Shown: positions 11,696-60,940 of the stretch, in pieces | Position numbering within the stretch: the first letter of the stretch is position 1 | Layout of the letters: each line of letters opens with the position of its first letter | Notes under the pieces: model-generated | Told to the model about the DNA's origin: nothing | Database searches by the model: none | What the model saw: only the letters and a program-made list of their open reading frames with translations | Translations under genes and position numbers: made by a program | DNA from: an uncultured bacterium | GTDB taxonomy: Bacteria; Patescibacteriota; Kazan-3B-28 | Reading direction: 5' to 3' | NCBI GenBank assembly: GCA_963695435.1 | Contig: OY968788.1 | Location: 207,424-271,423 of the forward strand | Length of the DNA: 64,000 nucleotides

Positions 11696-12060
11696 CATTA
11701 TTTTTCTCTTTTTTCTTTTCGTCATTCTGGCTTGACCAGAATCTTATAGTATCTTTTTATGTTTTGTTTCAAGGGTCTGCGCGACCCTTGTACCGCGGTT
11801 ACTTTGTCTTGCCAAAGTAACCAAAGCGCTTGCCCACGTCGTCGGAACTATCAATTGGCAAAAATCATCTTTCCGCTAATGGTCGAAACTCGGTCGTAGC
11901 CACTCCCTCAAACATCTCCCCGCGGCGATGATTTTACTCAATTGATTACGTTCCTCCTCCTATGGCATGAAGACAGAAGGGAAAAGGCGACAATGGCGGA
12001 TAGAACAGGGGTGGCTAACTATTTATTGTCTGGGGGCGGTTTTTTGCGTATTATAGGAGA
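11696..12060 (+). repeat. Mosaic intergenic repeat element, locus L1 (modules M1-M2-M3-M4)
   Basis: ttttcttttcGTCAT + hairpin, gggtctgcgcgaccc palindrome, cggttactttg..caaagtaacc hairpin, ctaatggtcgaaactcggtcg, aatggcggatagaacaggggtgg; the same modules recur at 41.3, 57.9, 15.6 and 14.4 kb. Confidence 0.75.
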
Positions 12061-13293
12061 GTGAAAAAGTTCATACTCAATCTGTTTGGGTGGTTGGCGG
12101 GTCAGATTGCCCGTAAGTATCAGGTGAAGATAGTTGCCGTCACCGGAAGCGTGGGTAAGACCACTACCAAGGAGGCGGTGTTTGCCGTGCTGAAGCAAGC
12201 GTATCTAGTCCAGCGTAGTTTGTACAACGCCAACACCGAGTGGGGAATTACAGCGTCTGTAATCGACCCTGGATTTGAGCCATCGTTTACTGAATCGGGA
12301 AAAGCGCGGATAAGTTTGACGCAACTTGTCTCTTTGAAATTTAAGGGACTATGGAAATTAATAACGAAGCAAAATTATCCCGCCGTGCTGGTTTTGGAAA
12401 TGGCGGCGGACAGGCCAAATGATATTCGCTGGTTCAACCGCTGGTTTGATTATGATGTGGCGGTAATTACCACGATCGGTGATTCGCATTTGGAGTTTTA
12501 TAAAAGTCAGGAAGAACTGACAGCGGAAAAATTGTCGCTTACTAAAAAATTGAAACCGCGAGGGCTTGCGGTGATCAATGGCGGATGTGAAAGATGTCAG
12601 GGGTTGGTTTTGGCTGATTCACAAAGAAAAGTGACCTTTGGGTGGAACGAGCAAAGTAACTATTGGGCGGAAACGACGGGAGAAAGTAATTATATTTTGC
12701 ACAGTCCTGCAGATAAATTTGAAGTGAAGTTGCCTGTGGGGCGTCAATTTGTACCGGCGGCGCTGGTTGCCTTTGCGGTGGGAGAGGAGTTTGGACTGAC
12801 GGCAGAACAAATCAAAAAAGGGCTGGAAGAATTTCAGCCAATCAGTGGTCGTTTCCAAATTCAACACGCTCCTATGTGGACTATTATTGATGACACTTAC
12901 AATGCCAGTCCTGAATCGATGCGATTGGCGCTGATGAGCTTGAAAGATGTTGCGCGGGGCAGAAAAGTTGCGATTTTGGGTGGTATGAGAGAGCTCGGGA
13001 GTGCGACTGAAGAAGGGCACCGACAAGTAGGACAGTGGGCGGCGAAACAAGTTGGTCTACTTATTGTAGTAGGCAAAGATGCCGAGTTGATTGCGGAGGG
13101 TGCAATATCGGCTGGGATGTTGCAGGAAAATGTAGTAAAAATTTCGTGGGATGAAAATAATCCCAGTGTTGATTCGGCTATCTCCCAGATTTTGCCCATA
13201 TTAGAGGAAGGTGATACCGTATTAGTAAAGGCCTCTCGAGCGTTGCATTTGGATCGCTTGGTGGAGAGATTGTCGGCACAAAAGAAGATTTAG
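12061..13293 (+). CDS. murF: UDP-MurNAc-tripeptide--D-alanyl-D-alanine ligase (short N-terminus)
   Basis: GSVGKTTTKE P-loop already at residue about 29; C-terminus ..GDTVLVKASRAL is MurF-like; directly upstream of mraY; GTG start. Confidence 0.7.
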   Translation: MKKFILNLFGWLAGQIARKYQVKIVAVTGSVGKTTTKEAVFAVLKQAYLVQRSLYNANTEWGITASVIDPGFEPSFTESGKARISLTQLVSLKFKGLWKLITKQNYPAVLVLEMAADRPNDIRWFNRWFDYDVAVITTIGDSHLEFYKSQEELTAEKLSLTKKLKPRGLAVINGGCERCQGLVLADSQRKVTFGWNEQSNYWAETTGESNYILHSPADKFEVKLPVGRQFVPAALVAFAVGEEFGLTAEQIKKGLEEFQPISGRFQIQHAPMWTIIDDTYNASPESMRLALMSLKDVARGRKVAILGGMRELGSATEEGHRQVGQWAAKQVGLLIVVGKDAELIAEGAISAGMLQENVVKISWDENNPSVDSAISQILPILEEGDTVLVKASRALHLDRLVERLSAQKKI

Positions 13294-15532: not shown

Positions 15533-15948
15533 ATTTTGTATTGCTGACTGCCGTCAGCTAGGACCGAGCGCCAAATCGCGCTCGACCGATTCCCGCTTTG
15601 GCAAGGCATAAGCGGGACAAATCGCCGGCCTGCGGCTTCAGGTCTATTCAATGGCAAAATTGCCTTTCCACTAATGGTCGAAACTCGTCGCTTGCCAGCT
15701 CCTCAAACATCTCCCCGTGGCGGCAATTTTGCTCATTTCAGTACGACCTTACGCCGAAAGGCCGAGAGAAAAACAAAGGGCAGGCTCCAATGGCGGATAG
15801 AGGAGGGGGGAAATCTTGACTGGGAGCGGGTTTTCTGCTACCTTGGGGGTGTAGACGATTGTGCCTACCCAACCCTGAGGAGGCGGTTCACCCGCAAGCT
15901 CCGGAAACCGGAGAGCCTCGCAGATAGTTGGTTTGAAAAGGAGACTTC
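15533..15948 (+). repeat. Mosaic intergenic repeat element, locus L3 (modules M7-M3-M4-M6), leader of DGR1 target
   Basis: gaccgagcgccaaatcgcgctcgaccgatt + hairpin, ctaatggtcgaaactcg, aatggcggatagaggagggggg, cttgactgggagcgggttttctg. Confidence 0.7.
15816..15844 (+). promoter_or_regulatory. Promoter TTGACT-N17-TACCTT with GAGCGGGTTTT spacer (copy 3 of 4), about 105 nt upstream of the DGR1 target
   Basis: cttgactgggagcgggttttctgctacctt, almost identical to 58219-58247. Confidence 0.5.
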
Positions 15949-16843
15949 AATGGATAAGAAGTCAATTACTGCGGCTCAAATCAAGCAAATTGTGGGCTTT
16001 GTTCGCGATGTTGTCTCAACGCTTGGTTTGGGATTCTCTCAAGTGCAGGCGTTCATCAGTGATGCCAATCAGGTGGCTAAGTTCAAGGAGGGAATCAAAA
16101 ACCTTCTGCAGGAAATGATTGCTTCCAATCCGTTTGCTAAGGAGCGGGTCAAGCAGGCTTGGTTCTATCCAAAGAACTGGAAGTCCAAGAGCATAAGTGA
16201 GCAACTGGTCAAGCTCACCGACCTTTTCCAGAGTATCGACTTATCGCAGGTCGAAGCTTTGATGGATAAGGTGATTGTGCAGAAGCTCGCTGATGGCGTC
16301 GTCATCCTCCCCAAGCTCTCGTTCTTGGCTAAACTGTGGAGTATACCTGATCCCTATGGGGAAGGTTATGGTTTTGTCTGCGAGAAGCTATTCGGGCGCA
16401 TTGCCGTTAGCCGTGCTTTCTACAACTACCGAGCTGGGCAAATGGATGCGAAGCATATTCGTATCCATCAAGAAGTTCGCAACTTGCTGGAAAAGTTGGA
16501 AGCGGAGACTCCGGGTGATGTTCTCGTCTTGCCCTTCGACTTCGGGGGGTTATATGCGGGATGGAGCCCGCGAGCTGCTCGGTGGGAAGCACTGAACAAT
16601 AGTCAGCTTCCGCTGATTACGGCTCAAGTCGCTTGCCTTTTGCTGACTATGCCGGATCGACTTACCACTTGGGAGCAACTCTTTATTGACTGCTCTGGCG
16701 ATGAATGGGACTGGCTCGCTGTCGGCTGCTGGGCGGATTGCCCGTGCTTCGACTTCCGCAGCGGCGAGCTTTTGTTCGACGACGGGGGCGCTGGCTACGC
16801 CGGTGGCCGCGATGGGTCGGCGGTGGCTTTTCTCGGAGTGTAG
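15949..16843 (+). CDS. DGR1 variable (target) protein; C-terminal 43 codons are the VR
   Basis: RBS aaaggagact then ATG; C-terminus ..AVGCWADCPCFDFRSGELLFDDGGAGYAGGRDGSAVAFLGV is encoded by VR1; the ORF track upstream extension (15674) lies in the repeat/promoter region. Confidence 0.8.
16711..16839 (+). repeat. DGR1 variable repeat (VR1)
   Basis: 129 nt aligned to TR1 with 23 differences, 22 at TR adenines; 3' 39 nt identical (IMH-like GC-rich end). Confidence 0.9.
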
Positions 16844-16894
16844 CGACTTGGGGATTGGTCATTGCAACTTTTGAACATTGCGTTTGCTTTTCAG

Positions 16895-16924
16895 AGCGGC
16901 GGGTGGAAACACCCGCCGCTTTTT
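16895..16924 (+). terminator. Rho-independent terminator / GC hairpin about 55 nt downstream of VR1
   Basis: agcggcgggtg gaaa cacccgccgct tttt. Confidence 0.65.
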
Positions 16925-17154
16925 GCTGTAAAATACTTATGAAAGTAGGCAGTGAGATTAAGTTTACGGACTTAGTCCGCCGAAATTGTGTCACAAGCAC
17001 TGGCTAGAGTTCGGTAAAAATATTTTGCCGAAGAATGCCAACTTGAGAATTAGACACTCCTTGCCTCTCGCAAGTTTGAGGGTAAAACCCCCGTATAAAA
17101 TACAGCGAAGCTATGATTTTAGCTCGCAGTGGTGCGGATAGTGTAGAGGCAATG

Positions 17155-17283
17155 CTGGAACGCTGACGGCAACTGGGCGAATTGCCCGTACTTCAACTTC
17201 AACAACGGCGAGCTTAAGTTCGACAACAGGGACGCTGACTACGCCAATGACAACTATGGGTCGGCGGTGGCTTTTCTCGGAGT
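17155..17283 (+). repeat. DGR1 template repeat (TR1)
   Basis: A-rich AAC-codon-rich copy of VR1; differs from VR1 essentially only where TR has A. Confidence 0.9.
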
Positions 17284-17285
17284 TG

Positions 17286-17600
17286 CTAATTTTCTAAACT
17301 GCGTATCCATCCGCCTAGCATACGGCCAATCTCTTGCAGAATCGTTTCGAGTGCGAGATATCGTTTTTGATCAAGAGAGTTGATGTCGAATGATAGGCGG
17401 ATTAGCAGTTTCAAAATATCCAGTTCGGCATTACTGGCAGTTAGATAAGTTCGTCTTGCACTTTTTTCTGTTCTGGTGGCTATAGTAACGGAATATAGCA
17501 AGTCGAGTGTCTTGGTTTGAATGATTTGACCGAGAGAATACTTCTCGGACTTGGGGAACTTTTGTACAGTGTCATGAAGAAGTCGGTAAAATTCATACAA
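17286..17600 (-). CDS. avd: DGR accessory variability determinant (Avd), four-helix-bundle protein
   Basis: 104 aa; C-terminus ..LQEIGRMLGGWIRSLEN resembles Bordetella phage bAvd ..EVGRILGSWIARV; member of the 23S rRNA-IVS four-helix-bundle family; abuts TR1. Confidence 0.8.
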   Translation of the reverse strand: MYEFYRLLHDTVQKFPKSEKYSLGQIIQTKTLDLLYSVTIATRTEKSARRTYLTASNAELDILKLLIRLSFDINSLDQKRYLALETILQEIGRMLGGWIRSLEN

Positions 17601-17634
17601 TTTCAGAACAATCGGGATTTCTCCAAATCCGTCC

Positions 17635-17645
17635 GGGGGGGGGGG
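17635..17645 (+). repeat. G11 homopolymer inside the RT1 5' region
   Basis: gtccGGGGGGGGGGGttagt; separates an upstream ATG (17574, different frame) from the RT frame. Confidence 0.9.
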
Positions 17646-17710
17646 TTAGTGGGAAAGTTATTTTCCATAACGGCGTTTTCTCCGAAATAATTTCATTAGA
17701 GAATTTATTT

Positions 17711-18685
17711 TTGGCTTGGGCTGAATTTCGCAAAGGCAAACGAAATAAACCGGATGTCCAAGCGTTCGAGCTTCATCTTGAAGATAACATATTCGCTCTT
17801 CGCGAGGATTTGGTGAGTGGCAATTATCGGCACGGTGACTATCATCAATTTCGTATTTCTGACCCCAAACCTCGAGTGATTAGTAAGGCATCTGTTCGGG
17901 ATAGATTATTACATCGTGCTATTCATCGGGTTTTATATCCGATTTTTGATAAGACTTTTATCTTCGATAGTTATTCTTGTCGAGATAACAAAGGTACTCA
18001 TCGGGCATTTTGGCGTTTGGCACAAATGACTCGCAAAATCTCTGAAAATTACACTCGACCTTGTTATGCTTTGAAATGCGACATTCGAAAATTCTTCGAC
18101 AGCATTGATCATCAAATATTATTCGGTCTGTTGGAAGACCGCATAGCGGACGAAAAGTTGCTGAAGTTGCTTCGAGATATTATCGGGAGTTTTGAACATT
18201 CTCCAGGCAAGGGAATGCCTTTGGGTAATCTGACCTCTCAACTTTTCGCCAATATTTATATGGATCCGCTAGATAAGTTTGTAAAACACCAGCTCAAAGC
18301 CAAATATTATTTGCGTTATGCGGATGATTTTATTTTCTTGTCAGATAATCCAGACGAGCTAATGGGTTATTTAGTCGAGGCGAATCATTTTTTGAAAACT
18401 AAACTGAAACTCAATATTCACCCAAACAAAATTTATCTTAGAAAACTGAAATGGGGAATTGATTATGTCGGCTATGTGGTTTTGCCACATTACAATCTGC
18501 CGAGGAGAAGAACGGTCGAAAGAATCAAGAAAAAACTGAAGAGCAGTTTGGCAATGGGTGATTTTGAGTCGGTTGCTGGGGCTATGCCGTCATATCTTGG
18601 CTACTTGGGTCATGCTAATGCTTATAAACTTCAGAAAAGTTTGTTGCGTAAAATAAATGAGGGGAATAATGTTGCCAAATATTGA
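17711..18685 (+). CDS. DGR1 reverse transcriptase (frame is open from 17525; annotated TTG start truncates the conserved N-terminus)
   Basis: RT motifs: ASVRDRLLHRAI, FIFDSYSCRDNKGTHRA, ALKCDIRKFFDSIDH, LGNLTSQLFANIYM (DGR-type GxxxSQ rather than intron QGxxxSP), YADDFIFL. Confidence 0.85.
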   Translation: MAWAEFRKGKRNKPDVQAFELHLEDNIFALREDLVSGNYRHGDYHQFRISDPKPRVISKASVRDRLLHRAIHRVLYPIFDKTFIFDSYSCRDNKGTHRAFWRLAQMTRKISENYTRPCYALKCDIRKFFDSIDHQILFGLLEDRIADEKLLKLLRDIIGSFEHSPGKGMPLGNLTSQLFANIYMDPLDKFVKHQLKAKYYLRYADDFIFLSDNPDELMGYLVEANHFLKTKLKLNIHPNKIYLRKLKWGIDYVGYVVLPHYNLPRRRTVERIKKKLKSSLAMGDFESVAGAMPSYLGYLGHANAYKLQKSLLRKINEGNNVAKY

Positions 18686-37914: not shown

Positions 37915-38822
37915 TGGGTAATAAATTACCGTTTCTACTGCAGGGACTATTCGTAGTATTCCTGTGGTCGGCGTCAAAGATTGTAATGAAAATCGGATTG
38001 GAAGAAATCCCGCCGTATTTTTTTGCTGGTTTATTACAATTATTAGTTTTTGTTCTTTTATTGATTTACACATGGTGGCAAAGAAAGAAATATTCATTCA
38101 AGCTTTCGGCGAAAGATAAATATGTAGCGGTTTTGTCAGGAATTGTGGGTGATGGCGCGGCGATTTTATTTTCAATGATCGGTTTGCAGTATGTGACGGG
38201 TGCTACTGCAGGTTTGATTGCGGCTACTAGTATTATTTTTGCTCTATTGATGGCGGGAATTCTGCTTAGGGAAAAACCGCGCTTGGAACAGTATTTTGGT
38301 ATTGCGGTGCTGGTTGCTGGTGTTGGAGTGTTTTTGGGTAATCAAGTCTTGGGCGGAACATTGTTGGGAGTTGGGATATTGCTTGTGGCGGAAGCGGCGT
38401 ATGCGTTTCATGCCGCAACAAATAGGATGATTTCAAAAACTCACAAGCAGGATATAAGTTTGCCATTAGCTCTACTTGGCAGCGGAGTGGGTGCGCTGAT
38501 TTTGGTTCCTGTCGGATTACTAATGAATGGTGTGCCTAGGGTAGTGTGGGATAGCAGATTGATTTTGGGGATTTTGGCGGTGGCGCTGATATTTGTGTTC
38601 GGAGAACTAATTTGGAATGGTCTACTGGATAAGCTGCAGGTTTTCGAGCTTTCGATTTTGAGCAACACGATGATAATCCAAGTGGCAATACTTTCGGTCA
38701 TCTTTTTGAATGAAACAATAACTACGAATAATATTATGGGCGGGTTATTGGTTTTGCTGGGTGCGGTGGTAGTGGACGGGCGGATGATATTTCCACACGC
38801 TTTTGGGCTAAAGTTAGCGTAA
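37911..38822 (+). CDS. DMT (EamA-like) family transporter
   Basis: 10 TM helices in two 5-TM repeats. Confidence 0.55.
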   Translation: MMGNKLPFLLQGLFVVFLWSASKIVMKIGLEEIPPYFFAGLLQLLVFVLLLIYTWWQRKKYSFKLSAKDKYVAVLSGIVGDGAAILFSMIGLQYVTGATAGLIAATSIIFALLMAGILLREKPRLEQYFGIAVLVAGVGVFLGNQVLGGTLLGVGILLVAEAAYAFHAATNRMISKTHKQDISLPLALLGSGVGALILVPVGLLMNGVPRVVWDSRLILGILAVALIFVFGELIWNGLLDKLQVFELSILSNTMIIQVAILSVIFLNETITTNNIMGGLLVLLGAVVVDGRMIFPHAFGLKLA

Positions 38823-38827
38823 ATAAT

Positions 38828-38950
38828 CTCGGAGGGAAAAGACCAGAAAAAGGTCTTTTCCCTTCCGACGCTCCGACAAGTCGGAGCTGCCTCCCTTTTT
38901 CTAGGAGTTCGCAGTCCGAAGTAAATTCGAGACTGCTCACGGATTAGGAT
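38828..38950 (+). repeat. 120-nt three-hairpin repeat element, copy 1 (DMT-cysS spacer)
   Basis: ctcggagggaaaagaccagaaaaaggtcttttcccttccgacgctccgacaagtcggagctgcctccc..gcagtccgaa..ttcgagactgc..ggattagga; second copy at 56492-56611. Confidence 0.8.
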
Positions 38951-41321: not shown

Positions 41322-41850
41322 CGTTTGGCGTTTAGTTTTTTATTTTTCTTTTGTCATGCTTGAGTGAAACGAAGCATCTATAATGATGTTTCTTTTTTTA
41401 TTTTTCTTTTCAAGGGTCTGCGCGACCCTTGGCGGCGGGACCGAGCGCCGAATCGCGCTCGACCGATTGTCGCTTTGTCTTGGCAAAGCGACGGAAACCG
41501 CTTGCCCACGTCGTCGGAACTATCAATTGGCAAAAATCATCTTTCCGCTAATGGTCGAAACTCGGTCGGTCGCCGCGGCGACCTCCTTCAAACATCTCCC
41601 CGCGGTGATGATTTTACTCAATTGATTACGTTCTTCCTCCTATGGCGGGGGAAGACTTCATTCTAGATTCTAAATTCTAGATTCTAGATTCCAGATTCTA
41701 TCCTTGGGCTCCAATGGCGGAGGGAGAGGCGATGATTTCTCTTGCTCTTGATTTACCCCCCCAATCACTTAGAATGGGGGCGATTTGGCATCTTGAAATG
41801 TCGGTAAGGTAATCTCTGAAGAAAACATCCCTAAAGGAGGGAAAAGCTCG
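41322..41850 (+). repeat. Mosaic intergenic repeat element, locus L4 (M1-M7-M2-M3, tandem heptamers, M4)
   Basis: ttttcttttGTCATgcttgagtgaaacgaagcatc, gggtctgcgcgaccc, gaccgagcgccgaatcgcgctcgaccgatt, ctaatggtcgaaactcggtcg, ggctccaatggcggagggagagg. Confidence 0.75.
41661..41702 (+). repeat. Tandem heptamer (TTCTAGA)x6, imperfect
   Basis: ttctaga ttctaaa ttctaga ttctaga ttccaga ttctatc. Confidence 0.85.
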
Positions 41851-54731: not shown

Positions 54732-56486
54732 ATGGAAGAAAAGAAAAAAATAGTTTTACCAGCGATTATGACCGTCAATGAATTGGCGAGCTCTTTTAGT
54801 GTGCCAGTGACGGTGGTAATCAAACAGCTATTATCTAACGGTGTGTTGGCAACTATTAATGACAATATCGATTTTGAGACTGCGGCTATCGTAGCGGACG
54901 ATTTAGGTTACGAAGTGTCACAAAGTGAATCTCTCGCGGATACGGGAACAATTGCAGAAAAACAGGTTGAGGTTGGCGAGCCTAGAGCGCCCATTGTGAC
55001 GGTAATGGGGCATGTTGATCACGGAAAAACTTCCTTGCTGGACTATATTCGCAAGACCAAGATTACCGAAAAAGAATCGGGTGGAATTACCCAGCATATT
55101 GGAGCGTATCAGGCGGAATTCAAGGGCAGAAAGATTACTTTCTTAGATACGCCAGGGCACGAAGCATTTTCCGCGATTAGAGCGCAGGGAGCTAAAGTGA
55201 CGGATGTGGTTATTTTGGTGGTAGCGGCAGATGAAGGAATAAAACCACAAACTATTGAAGCGATTGAGCTGGCGAGAGCGGCAAATGTGCCGATTGTGAC
55301 AGCAATTACCAAAATTGACCGACCGGAAGCAAATATTATGCGAGTGGAACAGGAATTGGCTGCGCACAATATCGTAACGGAAAAATGGGGCGGAAAAGAT
55401 GTAATTATTGGTGTTTCCGCAAAATCCGGTGAAGGAGTGGATGAATTATTAGATTTAGTTTTACTAACTGCTGATTTACAGGAATTAAAAGCGCAAAAAC
55501 AAGTGTCTGCGTCAGGTTTTGTAATTGAAACAAAGCACGACCCCAAAGTTGGCTACACAGCAACATTATTAGTACACAACGGAACATTGAAGATTGGTGA
55601 TGCGTTTGTGGTTGGAATTCAGGCAGGCAAAGTGAAATCGATGGAAGATTATTTGGGCAAACGGGTGAAAGAAGCTGGTCCATCAATGCCGGTAAGGGTG
55701 ACGGGATTTGGTGCAGTGCCAAATGCAGGTGAGTTTTTTGAAGTAGTGGAAAGCGAAAAAGCAGCGCGGGAAATTTCACTTTCTAAATCAAAACAAGCTA
55801 CGGCGCGCAGAATTTCTGTCACATCATCCGATTTGTCCAAACTAACCGCGCAGATTCGCGCATCGCGTTCATCGCAAATTGCGGTGGTATTGAAGGCGGA
55901 TATGCAAGGCTCACTAGAGGCAATAAAAAACCAGTTGGCAAAAATCCGCACTGATAAAGGAGAAATCAAGATCATTGCCGAAGGTATCGGAAACATTAGC
56001 GAATCAGATGTTTTGGGCGCAGTAGGAGAAAAAGCGGTGGTAGTCGGTTTTAAGGTTGATGTATCACCATCTGCTGCCAGTATGGCGAAGAAAGATAAAA
56101 TTCAAATTTTGACTTACGACATTATTTATAATTTGACTGATGATCTGACAAAAATATTATTAGAATCGATTGAACCGGAAAAAATAGAAACCCAAGTGGG
56201 TAGAGCGACAGTGCTGAAAATTTTCCGTGATGATAGACATGAAAAAATTATCGGCATGAAAGTGGTGTCGGGGCGGATTACAGTTGGTAACATGGTGAAA
56301 TTTACTCGTGGAGAGGAAGAAATTGGTGAAGGTACGGTAAAACTGATTAAACATTTGACTGAAGATGTATCGGAAGCGACACCGGGAACAGATTTCGGTT
56401 TTCTAGTGGCAACTACGGCTAAAGTTCAGCCTGATGATGTGGCGGAATTTGTAAAAGTCGATTATAAAAAGGCAAAGTTGGTATAA
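54732..56486 (+). CDS. infB: Translation initiation factor IF-2
   Basis: G domain GHVDHGKTSLLD, DTPGHEAF, NKID; beta-barrel domains. Confidence 0.9.
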   Translation: MEEKKKIVLPAIMTVNELASSFSVPVTVVIKQLLSNGVLATINDNIDFETAAIVADDLGYEVSQSESLADTGTIAEKQVEVGEPRAPIVTVMGHVDHGKTSLLDYIRKTKITEKESGGITQHIGAYQAEFKGRKITFLDTPGHEAFSAIRAQGAKVTDVVILVVAADEGIKPQTIEAIELARAANVPIVTAITKIDRPEANIMRVEQELAAHNIVTEKWGGKDVIIGVSAKSGEGVDELLDLVLLTADLQELKAQKQVSASGFVIETKHDPKVGYTATLLVHNGTLKIGDAFVVGIQAGKVKSMEDYLGKRVKEAGPSMPVRVTGFGAVPNAGEFFEVVESEKAAREISLSKSKQATARRISVTSSDLSKLTAQIRASRSSQIAVVLKADMQGSLEAIKNQLAKIRTDKGEIKIIAEGIGNISESDVLGAVGEKAVVVGFKVDVSPSAASMAKKDKIQILTYDIIYNLTDDLTKILLESIEPEKIETQVGRATVLKIFRDDRHEKIIGMKVVSGRITVGNMVKFTRGEEEIGEGTVKLIKHLTEDVSEATPGTDFGFLVATTAKVQPDDVAEFVKVDYKKAKLV

Positions 56487-56491
56487 CACAA

Positions 56492-56611
56492 CTCGGAGGG
56501 ACAAGACCAGAAAAAGGTCTTTTCCCTTCCGACGCTCCGACAAGTCGGAGCTGCCTCCCTTTTCCAGGGAGTTCGCAATCCGAATTTAATTCGGATTGCT
56601 CACAGATTAGG
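56492..56611 (+). repeat. 120-nt three-hairpin repeat element, copy 2 (infB-rbfA spacer)
   Basis: Same sequence as 38828-38950 with compensatory changes in hairpin 3 (gcaatccgaatttaattcggattgc); ends in an AGGAG RBS for rbfA. Confidence 0.8.
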
Positions 56612-57928: not shown

Positions 57929-58353
57929 GTTTTTTATTGTTTTCTTTTTCTTTTTTGTCATTCCTGCGGAGGCAGGGATCCATTTTCTTTTTGTTTATTT
58001 TTTCAAGGGTCTGCGCGACCCTTGTACCGCGGTTACTTTCCGCTTGAGGAAAGTAACCAAAGTCGCTCCCCACTCACAAATTCATTTTCCAAAAAAGCAA
58101 AATATAACCTTTCTGGACTATACGCTATACTCGCTACGCTCAAACAACGCTATCCATACCGGTCAATTTTGCTATTGGAAATATGAATTTGCTCAATGGG
58201 TATCGGGGAGGGGAAAGCTTGACTGGGAGCGGGTTTTCTGGTATCCTGCGGGTGTAAGGTGGACCCTGTGATTTTTAGGGAAATACCCCACCAGTACCTT
58301 GAAGACTAGCCGACACAAGTTAGCCTATAAGGTATTAGTAAAAGGAGACTGGG
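57929..58353 (+). repeat. Mosaic intergenic repeat element, locus L5 (M1-M2-M5-M6), leader of DGR2 target
   Basis: ttttcttttttGTCATtcctgcggaggcaggga, gggtctgcgcgaccc, cggttactttc..gaaagtaacc, ctttctggactatacgctatactc, cttgactgggagcgggttttctg. Confidence 0.75.
58219..58247 (+). promoter_or_regulatory. Promoter TTGACT-N17-TATCCT with GAGCGGGTTTT spacer (copy 4 of 4), about 107 nt upstream of DGR2 target
   Basis: cttgactgggagcgggttttctggtatcct. Confidence 0.5.
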
Positions 58354-58995
58354 ATGACTATCCTAGCCGCCATTGATGTTGTGATGAAGTTGCTCGGGGC
58401 TCTCATCACTGCTAAGCCCAACGAGAGTGAAGACTACGCTCGGGTCAATGAACTGCTAAAGCAGCTCAAGACTCTGGGCGAAGAAGCTCTTGGCAGACTG
58501 CTTCAGCGGATGAACTACATCCGTGAGTTGCTGTCCCGCAGTACACTTCCCACCCTAGACGACTTGAAGACATTTCTAAACCAAGTCATTCAGGTCATCG
58601 ACTGCGATGCCCAGCCATTCATTCCTGATGGCTGGAAGGTGCAAGAGCACCAAAAGGGTGGCAAGCTCGAATGGAATCCCGAGAAGATTCAGCTTTATCT
58701 TTCGGATGGGCAAAAGGACGGCAAGTATATTGAGGGCAATAAGCTTCGCAAGGAGCTGAAGGGCAAGAAGGTTCTAAATGCCTGCGTTCTCGATTGGCTT
58801 TTGGCTCATCCCGAGTTTATCCCAGAAGAATGGAAGAGTAAGTATATTTTTTTCTGGGGTACCATCTATCGCATCTCGGGCGGCGACCTGTATGTCCGTT
58901 GCCTCTGCTGGCTCGGTGACAGGTGGCACTGGCGCTACGCTTGGCTCGACGACGATTGGTACGACAGCCGCCCTGCTGCTGTTCTCGCAAGTTAG
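58354..58995 (+). CDS. DGR2 variable (target) protein; C-terminal about 40 codons are the VR
   Basis: RBS aaaaggagact; C-terminus ..RISGGDLYVRCLCWLGDRWHWRYAWLDDDWYDSRPAAVLAS encoded by VR2. Confidence 0.8.
   Translation: MTILAAIDVVMKLLGALITAKPNESEDYARVNELLKQLKTLGEEALGRLLQRMNYIRELLSRSTLPTLDDLKTFLNQVIQVIDCDAQPFIPDGWKVQEHQKGGKLEWNPEKIQLYLSDGQKDGKYIEGNKLRKELKGKKVLNACVLDWLLAHPEFIPEEWKSKYIFFWGTIYRISGGDLYVRCLCWLGDRWHWRYAWLDDDWYDSRPAAVLAS
58869..58988 (+). repeat. DGR2 variable repeat (VR2)
   Basis: 118-nt gapless alignment to TR2 with 18 differences, all at TR adenines (AAC codons in TR); 3' 28 nt identical. Confidence 0.9.
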
Positions 58996-59342
58996 TCTTT
59001 GGGACTTGGGATCTTGGGTCTTCGGATCCTTTACCCTTGGTCCTTTGGCCGCGCTCTCCGGAGTGCGGCCTCTTTTTATGTTTCAAATTTGGTAAACTAT
59101 CCGTGGAACTAGGCGAATATGCCAGAGATTACGGTTTCTGGCTGCCGAACCCAGTATCCATACAATGAGAGTATTCCTGATTAAGATTTGGAATAGAGGG
59201 TTGTATGTAGAAACTTCAAAAAATGAAGATACTTGGTGTGAGATGTTCTGACATTATAGATGTCGAATAAAATACAATCCTAAGACTTCTGCTCCAAAAG
59301 CGGAATCAAGGGGTGGTGCTTACGGATAATATCTCGCACGAA

Positions 59343-59462
59343 TCGCAACTCGGACGGCAACCTGTATGTCCGTTACCTCAACTGGAACGGTGACAGGTGG
59401 AACTGGAACTACAATTGGCTCGACAACGATTGGAACGACAACAACCCTGCTGCTGTTCTCGC
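59343..59462 (+). repeat. DGR2 template repeat (TR2)
   Basis: AAC-rich copy of VR2 between the target gene and avd2. Confidence 0.9.
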
Positions 59463-59470
59463 TACTATCC

Positions 59471-59902
59471 TCATTTCTCTCCCGACTTTTCGGGAGAGTT
59501 TTGTCTATTGAGTTGTCCATTCCAACCACCGAGCATTTTGCCTATTTCATCTAGTTGAACCGAAACGGAACCGTATTTCTTGTTATCTAGAGATTTGGTT
59601 TCCCATAAGACCATTAGAAGAATTTTGAGGGTATCAGTTTTGCGGATTGCTAGTCTGACATAAGGAGACTTTTCTGTTCGGCTAAGGAAGCTGGCTTGAG
59701 CAACAGCTTCAATAATTTCTACAAATAAATTGTCTACTCTCTGTCCGATGGAGTAGCGATGGAGTTTAGGTAGGATTTGGTAATAGCTATACCATAGGAG
59801 GTACGCCTGTTTTAGGCGTTGAAGTAACGGAAGCAACTCTCTCTCTCTCGGTGTGGTATCTTTGTTCGTCATATGAAAATAGCTAAAGGTTATTATGAAC
59901 AT
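59471..59902 (-). CDS. avd: DGR accessory variability determinant (Avd), second copy
   Basis: Homolog of Avd1 (..YSIGQ..LDEIGKMLGGWNGQL); 5' end overlaps the RT2 5' end by about 30 nt (or abuts it if the second Met at 59872 is used). Confidence 0.75.
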   Translation of the reverse strand: MFIITFSYFHMTNKDTTPRERELLPLLQRLKQAYLLWYSYYQILPKLHRYSIGQRVDNLFVEIIEAVAQASFLSRTEKSPYVRLAIRKTDTLKILLMVLWETKSLDNKKYGSVSVQLDEIGKMLGGWNGQLNRQNSPEKSGEK

Positions 59903-60940
59903 ATTATCTCACTCGACAATCTTCTTGAGGCGTGGCGGGAATTTGTGGTGGGAAAACGGAATCGAAAGGATGTTCAGGAGTTCGAGAGAGATTTGATGTC
60001 TAATATTATCCAATTGCATCGAGATTTGGAATTAGGCAATTATCAACATTCGGATTATCAGCCATTCAAGATTACCGATCCTAAGCCACGCAACATTCAT
60101 AAAGCGAGCGTACGAGATAGACTACTTCATAGGGCGATTTATAGAATCTTATATCCGATTTTTGATAAGACTTTTATTTTTGATAGTTATTCTTGTCGAG
60201 ATAATAAAGGTACTCATCGGGCATTTTGGCGTTTGGCACAAATGACTCGCAAAATCTCTGAAAACTACACTCGACCTTGCTATGCTTTGAAGTGCGACAT
60301 CCGAAAATTCTTCGACAGCATTGATCACGAGGTGCTAATGGGGTTATTGCGAGCTCGTATTGTCGATGAGCGATTATTGAAATTGCTGGAGAGTATTATT
60401 GATAGTTTTTGTTTGGGTCTGGATTCCCGCCTGCGCGGGAATGACAAAGAAGGACGCGGGAATGACGGAGAAGGCAAGGGAATGCCTTTGGGTAATCTGA
60501 CCTCCCAACTTTTCGCCAATATTTATATGGACCCGCTAGATAAGTTTGTGAAACACCAGCTCAAAGCCAAATATTATTTGCGTTATGCGGATGATTTTAT
60601 TTTCTTGTCGGATAATCCAGACGAGCTAATGGGTTATTTGGTTGAGGCAAATCGTTTTTTGAAAACTAAACTGAAACTCAATATTCACCCAAACAAAATT
60701 TATCTTAGAAAACTGAAATGGGGGATTGATTATGTCGGCTATGTGGTTTTGCCACATTACAATCTGCCGAGGAGAAGAACGGTCGAGAGAATCAAGAAAA
60801 AACTGAAGAGCAATTTGGCGATGGGCGATTTTGAGTCGGTGGCTAGAGCTATGCCGTCGTATCTTGGTTATTTAGGACACGCTAATACTTATAAGCTCCA
60901 GAAAAGTTTGTTGGGCAAAATCGCAGATGCTAAAGCGTGA
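59873..60940 (+). CDS. DGR2 reverse transcriptase
   Basis: Same RT motifs as RT1 including LGNLTSQLFANIYM and YADDFIFL; ATG start; 21-aa insertion between motifs 3 and 4. Confidence 0.9.
   Translation: MKIAKGYYEHIISLDNLLEAWREFVVGKRNRKDVQEFERDLMSNIIQLHRDLELGNYQHSDYQPFKITDPKPRNIHKASVRDRLLHRAIYRILYPIFDKTFIFDSYSCRDNKGTHRAFWRLAQMTRKISENYTRPCYALKCDIRKFFDSIDHEVLMGLLRARIVDERLLKLLESIIDSFCLGLDSRLRGNDKEGRGNDGEGKGMPLGNLTSQLFANIYMDPLDKFVKHQLKAKYYLRYADDFIFLSDNPDELMGYLVEANRFLKTKLKLNIHPNKIYLRKLKWGIDYVGYVVLPHYNLPRRRTVERIKKKLKSNLAMGDFESVARAMPSYLGYLGHANTYKLQKSLLGKIADAKA

Follow-up and report, generated by a model that had tools for sequence, protein, structure and literature searches.

A simple-sequence repeat in the avd/RT overlap as a candidate contingency switch of a CPR-type chromosomal diversity-generating retroelement

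DGR1 is a diversity-generating retroelement (DGR) located in a 64-kb window, the whole stretch of DNA analysed here, and comprises a target gene ending in the variable repeat (VR), a template repeat (TR), an antisense avd gene and a reverse transcriptase (RT) gene. The target gene extends from ATG 15950 to 16843 on the plus strand and encodes 297 aa plus a stop. It is preceded by a promoter-like module (TTGACT, a 17-nt spacer and TACCTT; 15816–15844, plus strand), which, together with its conserved spacer GGGRGCGGKTTTT, recurs upstream of the target of DGR2 (58198–58256), a paralogous cassette 42 kb away, and upstream of the gene at 12061; judging from these motifs, the module may function as a promoter. 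The N-terminal part of the target protein, left unassigned by an earlier reading made from the letters alone (the sequence-only reading), is still without a recognised fold or family. In modelling, the last ~100 aa adopt a C-type-lectin-like fold, a candidate scaffold for display of the VR.

The VR (16711–16839, plus strand) occupies the last 43 codons of the target gene, and the TR (17155–17283, plus strand) contains 31 adenines, mostly in AAC/AAT-type codons. This pair, which was also recovered independently as repeat family D4, re-aligned at the positions first reported over 129 nt without gaps and with 23 mismatches, 22 of which fall at TR adenines (A>G 14, A>T 5, A>C 3), the remaining one being T>G. 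The hypergeometric probability of at least 22 of 23 mismatches at adenines, with 31 A in a TR of 129 nt, is 1.2e-16. In the target frame, every one of the 23 mismatches affects a first or second codon position, where 30 of the 31 TR adenines also lie. The sole non-A mismatch (TR T, VR G) is found at 16811, just upstream of an identical, IMH-like 3′ segment (16812–16840, plus strand, equal to the TR 3′ end at 17256–17284), which measures 29 nt at 62% GC rather than the 39 nt originally given. Additional VRs for TR1 or TR2 were not found within the 64-kb window, and A-biased VR/TR pairs are also present in the relatives L005, L001, L002 and L081.

Downstream of the target gene lies a GC-rich hairpin followed by a T-run (16895–16920, plus strand; 11-bp stem, GAAA loop), which is probably the target terminator and possibly a DGR cruciform as well. 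By the criterion of Guo 2011, a DGR hairpin is a GC hairpin with a GRNA loop placed 4–34 bp after the VR. The GAAA loop fits the GRNA consensus, but the hairpin stands 54 nt from the VR. In relatives, the loops of the corresponding hairpins differ and a T-run follows every one; this spacing and the lack of loop conservation speak for an ordinary terminator, and the cruciform is the less likely reading. Just past the T-run, TGTAAAAT (16927–16934, plus strand) is a candidate extended -10 element that may serve a TR-containing RNA, and the motif TGTAnAAT is conserved after the terminator T-run in W1, L005, L001 and L002.

The avd gene (17286–17668, minus strand) consists of a body at 17286–17634 and a leader whose ATG lies at 17668–17666. 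The antisense ORF 17600–17286, described by the sequence-only reading as a 104-aa Avd homolog, is a true Avd by the cut-offs of Pfam bAvd (PF22296; 66.5 bits, cut-off 40) and NCBIfam DivGenRetAVD (NF033474; 81.6 bits, cut-off 80); however, the ORF as delimited is a 5′-truncated remnant. Homology and synonymous-site changes extend upstream of its TTG start as far as a run of 11 G (C11 on the avd strand), and the Avd family profile starts just after this tract, upstream of TTG 17600. With the tract repaired to 12 G, the 127-aa Avd scores 86.9 bits, and positions 2–104 of the Avd profile cover residues 19–123. Matches of Avd to DARPin/ankyrin entries of the PDB were dismissed as compositional noise, with zero significant stretches.

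The RT gene (17574–18685, plus strand) has a conserved body at 17651–18685 and an upstream ATG at 17574. Its product carries the DGR-specific LGNLTSQ motif, as had been noticed, together with YADD, which fit the DGR-clade patterns [LIV]GxxxSQ and YxDD, and scores 95.2 bits against RVT_1. Its best solved relative is 8ub7_A (E 4.5e-52), which we take to be the Bordetella phage bRT, and group II RTs match at 1e-20 or weaker. A group II intron, the alternative setting that the sequence-only reading had proposed to look for, was rejected: no Rfam intron domain, V/VI included, matches in the region at the gathering threshold or at E up to 1, the Rfam search of the region returning a sub-threshold chance match only, and at 133.9 bits the RT stays below the 300-bit cut-off of the intron RT/maturase model TIGR04416. 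All NCBIfam RT models fall below cut-off for this RT. No canonical start is present at the homologous N-terminus; the first in-frame start, TTG 17711, is the one used in the public record (P0019, 324 aa), and it removes the N-terminal ‘IISLENLF’, a motif kept as far as bRT. Exact-protein look-ups of RT1 and RT2 as delimited here returned no match. Apart from the frame at the tract, neither avd1 nor RT1 carries a lesion.

The A-biased TR/VR pair, the Avd, the DGR-clade RT and the modelled C-type-lectin-like C-terminus of the target bear out the adenine-mutagenesis system first proposed, and DGR1 is a genuine chromosomal DGR of a kind common in ultra-small (CPR) bacteria. It resembles the DGR of BPP-1 (mtd-VR / avd / TR / brt) in its adenine-specific flow from TR to VR, its Avd accessory protein, an RT of the same clade, a VR in a C-terminal fold of C-type-lectin type (modelled in DGR1), the identical 3′ ends of TR and VR, and a GC hairpin with a GAAA loop downstream of the VR. 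Unlike the BPP-1 element, DGR1 is chromosomal rather than phage-borne, its target has neither a signal peptide nor a tail-fibre context, and a simple-sequence repeat interrupts both reading frames. Additionally, its avd lies on the opposite strand between TR and RT, in head-to-head overlap with RT, so that antisense avd takes the place that the ‘spacer’ has in BPP-1, after the TR. By analogy with BPP-1, a plus-strand RNA would start after the target terminator and comprise the TR, antisense avd and the RT message. An RT–Avd complex would copy the TR to cDNA, misincorporating opposite adenines, and this cDNA would replace the VR at the 3′ end of the 297-aa target, rewriting about 20 codon positions.

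By the CPR-specific order and orientation of avd and TR, termed the ‘B3 architecture’ in Wu et al. 2018 (PMC5758913), the antisense-avd layout of DGR1 is the standard CPR ‘B3’ architecture, although the text of that paper does not spell out the full B3 layout; the DGR itself is thus ordinary. The B3 DGRs of that paper and DGR clade 2 of Roux et al. 2021 (PMC8144416) share its host group and have targets that are mostly unannotated. Neither text describes a homopolymer, a simple repeat or a disrupted frame where avd meets RT; relative to the B3 and clade 2 descriptions as given there, the addition is the junction repeat and its population behaviour. No prior description of a repeat switch at this junction was found in the searchable literature, whose coverage of CPR DGR surveys is incomplete.

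A candidate slipped-strand switch lies where avd and RT overlap head to head: a repeat at 17635–17645 that reads G11 in the RT direction and C11 in the avd direction. It is the sole G/C run of at least 8 in the 64-kb window, in which 0.027 runs of at least 11 are expected, and the sole dinucleotide repeat of at least six units in the window, (CT)6, occupies the equivalent spot in DGR2. As assembled, neither avd nor RT has an in-frame ATG: the avd body frame has TAA (17648–17646) ahead of the C-run, and the leader ATG is in a different frame. At 12 or 9 G, avd is in frame with ATG 17668 (127 aa) and RT with ATG 17574 (370 aa), its sole upstream ATG; with 10, 11, 13 or 14 G, the ATG is in frame for neither gene. 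The tract would encode Pro-Pro-Pro in the avd leader and Gly-Gly-Gly in the RT N-terminal extension, the predicted leader peptides being MENNFPTNPPPP... for Avd and MKKSVKF...GGG... for RT. From this frame arithmetic, DGR1 is predicted to be OFF in the present assembly and would be ON at G12 or G9, and DGR2, with (CT)6, is predicted to be ON for avd. The description of DGR1 as ‘complete’ therefore stands for its list of parts and fails for its reading frames, a point that concerns present activity rather than identity as a DGR; as the G11 tract between avd and RT had been overlooked, the sequence-only reading was incomplete, not wrong.

A survey of related loci from Kazan, Berkelbacteria and other Patescibacteria (160 loci, 128 of them analysable, 1.14 Mb in total) places this tract in a wider context. 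A repeat is present at the avd/RT junction in 96 of the 128 analysable loci; it is poly-G in 87 (lengths 7–15, mode 9–10) and a GT, GA or CT dinucleotide repeat in nine. Among the G/C runs of at least 8 in the 1.14 Mb, all but about 8 lie at this junction. Relative to the avd body, the nearest avd ATG falls in a near-random frame (24 in frame, 30 and 40 in the other two frames, n = 94; p = 0.12 against a uniform distribution), far from being in frame throughout, with the ATG in frame in ~26–30% of the repeat-bearing loci, and short tracts (7–8 G) show no enrichment for the in-frame state. An in-frame avd ATG at the expected distance is found in 19 of 20 repeat-free loci versus 21 of 71 repeat-bearing ones, and 54 of the 96 repeat-bearing loci have no canonical in-frame start upstream of the tract. 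Since G11 leaves both genes of DGR1 without an in-frame start and similar repeats recur across the CPR clade, the tract is probably an on/off switch operated by length slippage.

Alternatively, DGR1 might be a decaying or dead copy beside a working DGR2, or G11 might be an assembly error. Of the two paralogous cassettes, which are separated by 42 kb, only DGR2 has intact starts; moreover, homopolymers are error-prone, lengths taken from short-read assemblies carry some error, and among the relatives two contigs break at the tract (L086, L087) and two begin with an artefactual ~50-C run next to the RT start (L015, L047). However, DGR1 has the same tract length in a second assembly (a Logan contig), and its avd and RT genes are otherwise undamaged. 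The dN/dS of the avd body is 0.12 between DGR1 and L005, both of them OFF loci, which indicates purifying selection. Furthermore, ~70% of about 96 independent loci, obtained by many projects and sequencing chemistries, are out of frame, which neither error nor parallel decay can explain, and a dead copy or an artefact is thus highly unlikely.

An ordinary constitutive DGR is also conceivable, in which Avd would be made from TTG 17600 and RT from TTG 17711, and the tract would be a low-complexity leader or UTR without consequence. Both TTG-initiated ORFs exist, and RT is annotated in this way (P0019). In 41 of 72 OFF loci, a GTG or TTG occurs within 12 codons after the tract, so that an internal start could make tract length irrelevant in some loci, and in 51 of the 96 repeat-bearing loci the RT has a separate ATG shortly after the tract. 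However, the close relative L001 has CTG in place of TTG 17600, and neither it nor L081 offers another start. Changes at third positions show that translation covers the interval from the tract to TTG 17600, and the Avd profile begins upstream of that codon. Similarly, initiation at TTG 17711 deletes the N-terminal motif conserved to bRT. The in-frame upstream ATG of the repeat-free relatives (19 of 20) also stands against constitutive expression from internal starts, which leaves unexplained why different repeat types persist at one spot; we consider it quite improbable.

Length polymorphism is seen directly between loci with nearly identical surroundings. In four of seven groups of loci with 96.7–100% identical flanks, the length of the repeat differs, and three of these include an in-frame variant; the other three of the seven multi-sample groups show no length variation. 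In one Kazan species, five complete assemblies carry G11 and L085 carries G10, the length at which both avd and RT are in frame. In another species, six assemblies carry (CT)10 and a single one (CT)9, which puts avd in frame. The remaining pairs are L048 with G11 (OFF) versus L129 with G10 (ON), and L003 with (TG)13 versus L094 with (TG)14.

This polymorphism also bears on programmed recoding, in which RNA-polymerase stuttering, or a ribosomal +1/-1 frameshift on CCC-C at a poly-proline stall, would yield constitutively low Avd and RT at any tract length. tRNA-Pro is able to re-pair in any frame on a C-run. Slippage of RNA polymerase or of the ribosome would equally be expected to give a near-uniform frame distribution; the frame in excess (k = 2, 40 of 94) is the one that needs -1 nt, i.e., a +1 ribosomal shift, and the avd body is under purifying selection despite its out-of-frame consensus. 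However, single-nucleotide ribosomal re-pairing fails at the nine loci, including DGR2, with GT, GA or CT repeats, and the four groups with near-identical flanks vary in length at the level of DNA. Recoding is accordingly an unlikely, though not negligible, explanation, and recoding and DNA switching are not mutually exclusive mechanisms.

We infer reversible switching in the DNA itself, with control over DGR activity, and we propose, with a probability of roughly 0.6, a contingency-locus switch gating DGR mutagenesis in the CPR-type (‘B3’) chromosomal DGR1. In the proposed mechanism, avd and RT are divergent and overlap head to head, and the simple-sequence repeat within the overlap (here G11/C11) lies in a short avd leader and, in the sub-clade of DGR1, also in an N-terminal extension of RT. 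A slipped-strand change in length would bring the two start codons into frame, or take them out of it, at the same time, whereby mutagenic retrohoming would be switched stochastically and reversibly. The upstream ATG of RT is in phase with the avd ATG in 34 of the 36 loci whose RT has no downstream ATG of its own, compared with 12 of the 29 whose RT does (p = 3.5e-6 for the contrast). Equal phasing of the two ATGs was rejected as overwhelming evidence by itself; antisense-frame symmetry forces part of it, and therefore only the contrast with the own-ATG loci is relied on. More broadly, we lean slightly towards the view that in most CPR DGRs a hypermutable mono- or dinucleotide repeat in the avd/RT overlap stochastically and reversibly turns on adenine mutagenesis in a minority of cells, a single tract gating both genes in one sub-clade that includes DGR1.

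The proposed switch resembles the contingency loci of Neisseria, Haemophilus and Campylobacter, which are built on poly-G/C or dinucleotide tracts. In both, a repeat of 7–15 units lies in the first codons of an ORF that is otherwise intact and under selection, and the frame is lost at about two thirds of the possible lengths; in relatives of DGR1, as in contingency loci, genomes that are otherwise identical differ in repeat length, with the frame toggled. Whereas those loci gate surface antigens or restriction-modification genes, the function gated in DGR1 would be targeted hypermutation, and a single tract, shared by two divergent genes that overlap, could gate the pair. The hosts differ as well, being CPR bacteria, in which, to our knowledge, phase variation has not been characterised.

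Unchecked rewriting of a binding protein that works is costly, yet we know of no DGR regulator outside a few phage and pathogen cases, and how mutagenesis is restrained is a general question for DGRs. A large share of the DGRs known to date is found in CPR bacteria. If the repeat gates Avd, and often RT too, this would explain why many DGRs seem ‘inactive’ in metagenomes and why CPR avd and RT genes are frequently mis-annotated as truncated. The logic would be one of bet-hedging, in which few cells diversify and most keep the current allele, and tract length modulo 3 would be a simple marker to correlate with VR diversity in existing read sets. Annotation pipelines and the reconstitution of CPR DGRs are affected as well, the public ORFs probably not being the active proteins.

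Two further readings of the repeat data were rejected. Poly-G as a Shine-Dalgarno sequence for RT does not fit, as the spacing to the RT ATG ranges from 10 to 40 nt and other repeat types substitute for poly-G. The two lengths (356 vs 340 aa) in a Nealsonbacteria RT cluster do not represent tract polymorphism, since this lineage is without the repeat and the lengths reflect the start choice of the gene caller; the bimodality of RT cluster lengths was left out as evidence. At the consensus level, the target protein is identical in the two assemblies of the window species and in 16 contigs of a related species.

The variable repeat (VR, 16711-16839) of the first cassette, DGR1 (15816-18685), aligns without gaps to its template repeat (TR, 17155-17283) over 129 nt with 23 mismatches, exactly where the sequence-only reading had placed the pair, which was also recovered blindly as repeat family D4 in a repeat search of the window. 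The adenine bias proposed for these mismatches is borne out, since 22 of the 23 fall on a TR adenine (A>G 14, A>T 5, A>C 3; the remaining one is T>G); with 31 A in the 129 nt of the TR, at least 22 of 23 mismatches would coincide with an A by chance with a probability of 1.2e-16. In the target frame, every one of the 23 mismatches occupies codon position 1 or 2, as do 30 of the 31 TR adenines; read in the VR frame, the TR encodes WNADGNWANCPYFNFNNGELKFDNRDADYANDNYGSAVAFLGV and uses AAC/AAT codons, as is usual. A GC-rich (62% GC) identical 3' tail is present; however, it spans 29 nt (16812-16840) and not the 39 nt claimed. No further VRs for this TR were found in the 64-kb window, which is part of a contig of 560 kb. 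The RTs nearest to that of DGR1 (RT1, 17651-18685) come from Kazan, Berkelbacteria, and other Patescibacteria genomes, and DGR1 is genuine yet unremarkable as a CPR DGR, adding one example to a known kind. Its layout of target/VR, TR, antisense avd, and RT is taken as the CPR architecture described by Wu et al. 2018 (PMC5758913).

The antisense ORF 17600..17286, proposed as an Avd homolog, matches PF22296 at 66.5 bits (cut-off 40) and NF033474 'DivGenRetAVD' at 81.6 bits (cut-off 80). The assignment of RT1 to the DGR-type enzymes likewise stands, with an RVT_1 match and both the LGNLTSQ and YADD motifs. Its best solved relative is 8ub7_A (E 4.5e-52), which we take to be the Bordetella phage bRT, and group II intron RTs match at 1e-20 or weaker. 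A group II intron was considered and rejected: RT1 reaches 133.9 bits against the 300-bit cut-off for group II RT/maturases, and an Rfam search of the DGR1 region returned no intron domains. The target protein has no match in Pfam or NCBIfam; its AlphaFold model, built from 18 homologues, is confident (pLDDT 91.7). A profile search of the target family gathered 1653 clusters (50% identity), almost all with proteins of about 300 aa, and ten sampled members contained no Pfam domains, bar one HNH fusion. In P0262, a relative of the target, an N-terminal HNH endonuclease domain replaces the N-terminal helices, a hint that this unannotated family, of at least 1653 such clusters, acts inside the cell in a conflict-related role.

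DGR1 had been described as complete; however, neither avd1 nor RT1 has a proper start codon as assembled. Between the two genes lies a G11 tract (17635-17645), the sole G/C run of at least 8 in the window; chance predicts 0.027 runs of at least 11 over the 64 kb. The avd gene is in frame from ATG 17668 (MENNFPTNPPPPDGFGEIPIV..., 127 aa) and RT from ATG 17574 (370 aa) when the tract has 12 or 9 G; at 10, 11, 13, or 14 G, neither gene is in frame with these codons. The predicted in-frame peptides of the cassette are MENNFPTNPPPPDGFGEIPIVLK and MKKSVKFIQFQNNRDFSK. The tract would be without consequence if translation began at downstream TTG codons. The RT1 frame is open upstream and its first canonical start is TTG 17711, from which the enzyme would lose the 'IISLENLF' motif that is kept in RT2, the RT of the second cassette, and in bRT. 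On the avd1 side, L001, a close relative, has CTG in place of TTG 17600, and third-position changes show that the preceding stretch, 'DGFGEIPIVLK', is translated. Downstream TTG starts are contradicted by this lack of conservation of the TTG and by the coverage of the Avd profile, which begins directly past the tract; the repaired Avd scores 86.9 bits, above the unrepaired 81.6.

Related loci were collected from species-representative genomes (80 loci) and metagenomes (80 loci), and a repeat occurs at the avd/RT junction in 96 of the 128 that could be analysed. It is poly-G in 87 loci (lengths 7-15, mostly 9-10) and GT, GA, or CT in 9, and its position is within the open frame of avd, a few codons ahead of helix 1. 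Of the G/C runs of at least 8 found in 1.14 Mb of related loci, only about 8 lie elsewhere than at this junction, and in many loci a conserved RT His codon, read on the opposite strand, supplies the avd start ATG. The G11 tract at the junction is not accidental. Public contigs tend to end at the poly-G tract (L086, L087), contigs L015 and L047 open beside the RT start with an artefactual stretch of about 50 C, and L088 and L089 are interrupted within the TR copy. CPR assemblies are therefore fragmented by the repeat and by the TR/VR pair, which hides these cassettes.

The avd body shares the frame of the nearest avd ATG in 24 loci and lies in a shifted frame in 70 (30 with one shift and 40 with the other), a distribution no different from uniform (p 0.12), and 54 of the 96 repeat-bearing loci have no canonical in-frame start upstream of the tract. 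Of 20 repeat-free relatives, 19 have an in-frame ATG at the distance expected, as against 21 of 71 repeat-bearing loci, a control that also contradicts downstream TTG starts. Decay of DGR1, or an assembly error in the tract, would leave the genes out of frame as well; however, this is contradicted by the scale of the out-of-frame pattern across loci and by purifying selection on the avd body, for which dN/dS is 0.12 between two out-of-frame loci. VRs are still diversified in out-of-frame relatives.

Repeat length also varies between loci with identical or near-identical flanks. In one Kazan species, five complete assemblies carry G11 and L085 carries G10, a length that puts both avd and RT in frame; a seventh contig of that species (L086) reads G10 followed by N. 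In another species, six assemblies carry (CT)10 and one carries (CT)9, at which avd is in frame; further pairs are L048 with G11 and L129 with G10 (in frame), and L003 with (TG)13 and L094 with (TG)14. Three further groups of near-identical loci showed no length variation. Slippage of RNA polymerase or the ribosome on the C-run could restore the frame from a fixed tract and is compatible with the uniform frame distribution; however, it is incompatible with the dinucleotide repeats and with length polymorphism in the DNA itself.

The best-supported interpretation is that the avd/RT repeat is a contingency locus, probably a new regulatory variant of the CPR DGR, in which slipped-strand changes in repeat length would gate Avd. 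RT lacks an ATG of its own past the tract in 45 of the 96 loci, DGR1 included, and in such loci the upstream RT ATG and the avd ATG are co-phased in 34 of 36 cases, as compared with 12 of 29 where RT has its own ATG (p 3.5e-6); only this between-group contrast is used, since antisense-frame symmetry forces part of the co-phasing. In the sub-clade of DGR1, the same length changes would gate RT too, and gating of Avd, with or without RT, would in turn gate mutagenic retrohoming. On the frames of the present assembly, DGR1 is best read as OFF, out of frame at G11, and DGR2 as ON. A full-text search of the accessible literature combining DGRs with phase variation or simple repeats returned no description of the feature, and the repeat is unmentioned in Wu 2018 (PMC5758913), in Roux 2021 (PMC8144416), and in a 2024 survey.

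DGR2 is a complete second cassette (58198-60940), comprising a target (58354-58995) with VR2 (58868-58988), TR2 (59342-59462), avd2 on the minus strand (59471-59872), and RT2 (59873-60940). All 18 VR2/TR2 mismatches are at A (P 3.7e-13). The start codons of avd2 and RT2 stand back-to-back (CATATG), and a (CT)6 repeat at 59837-59848, the sole dinucleotide repeat of at least 6 units in the window, encodes 'RERE' of the avd2 leader in frame. The TRs, Avds, and targets of the two cassettes are unrelated. RT1 and RT2 are mosaic in DNA identity: 60-nt stretches at the 5' end match at about 35-65%, and 17941-18060 and 18250-18550 at 95-98%, a pattern suggestive of gene conversion between these two genes.

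A GC hairpin with an 11-bp stem and a GAAA loop (16895-16920) lies 3' of the DGR1 target gene. The loop fits GRNA, the consensus of DGR cruciforms (Guo 2011); however, the hairpin is probably a terminator in the first place, lying 54 nt from the VR, with loops that differ among relatives and are followed by T-runs. Directly past the T-run, a TGTAnAAT element (16927-16934), kept in L005, L001, and L002, is a candidate extended -10 promoter for an RNA carrying the TR, antisense avd, and the message for RT; in that case antisense avd would here take the place of the 'spacer' used for priming in BPP-1. A promoter-like module (TTGACT or TTGTCT, 17 nt, TAYCYT or TATTAT) with the conserved spacer GGGRGCGGKTTTT is found upstream of both DGR targets and one unrelated gene (15816-15844, 58219-58247, and ~11990-12030), and the 5' UTRs of both targets end in TAAAAGGAGACT-n3-ATG. 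An intergenic element of about 200 nt, containing the hairpin CAAGGGTCTGCGCGACCCTTG and matching no Rfam family, occurs in 3-4 partial copies (11752-11950, 15561-15745, 41393-41630, and 57986-58039), two of which lie shortly ahead of the DGR target promoters. A separate 120-nt intergenic repeat with two GC hairpins has copies at 38810-38929 and 56474-56593 that are 88% identical. The plus strand of the window is skewed (G 27.1%, C 18.3%) and carries nearly all long ORFs.
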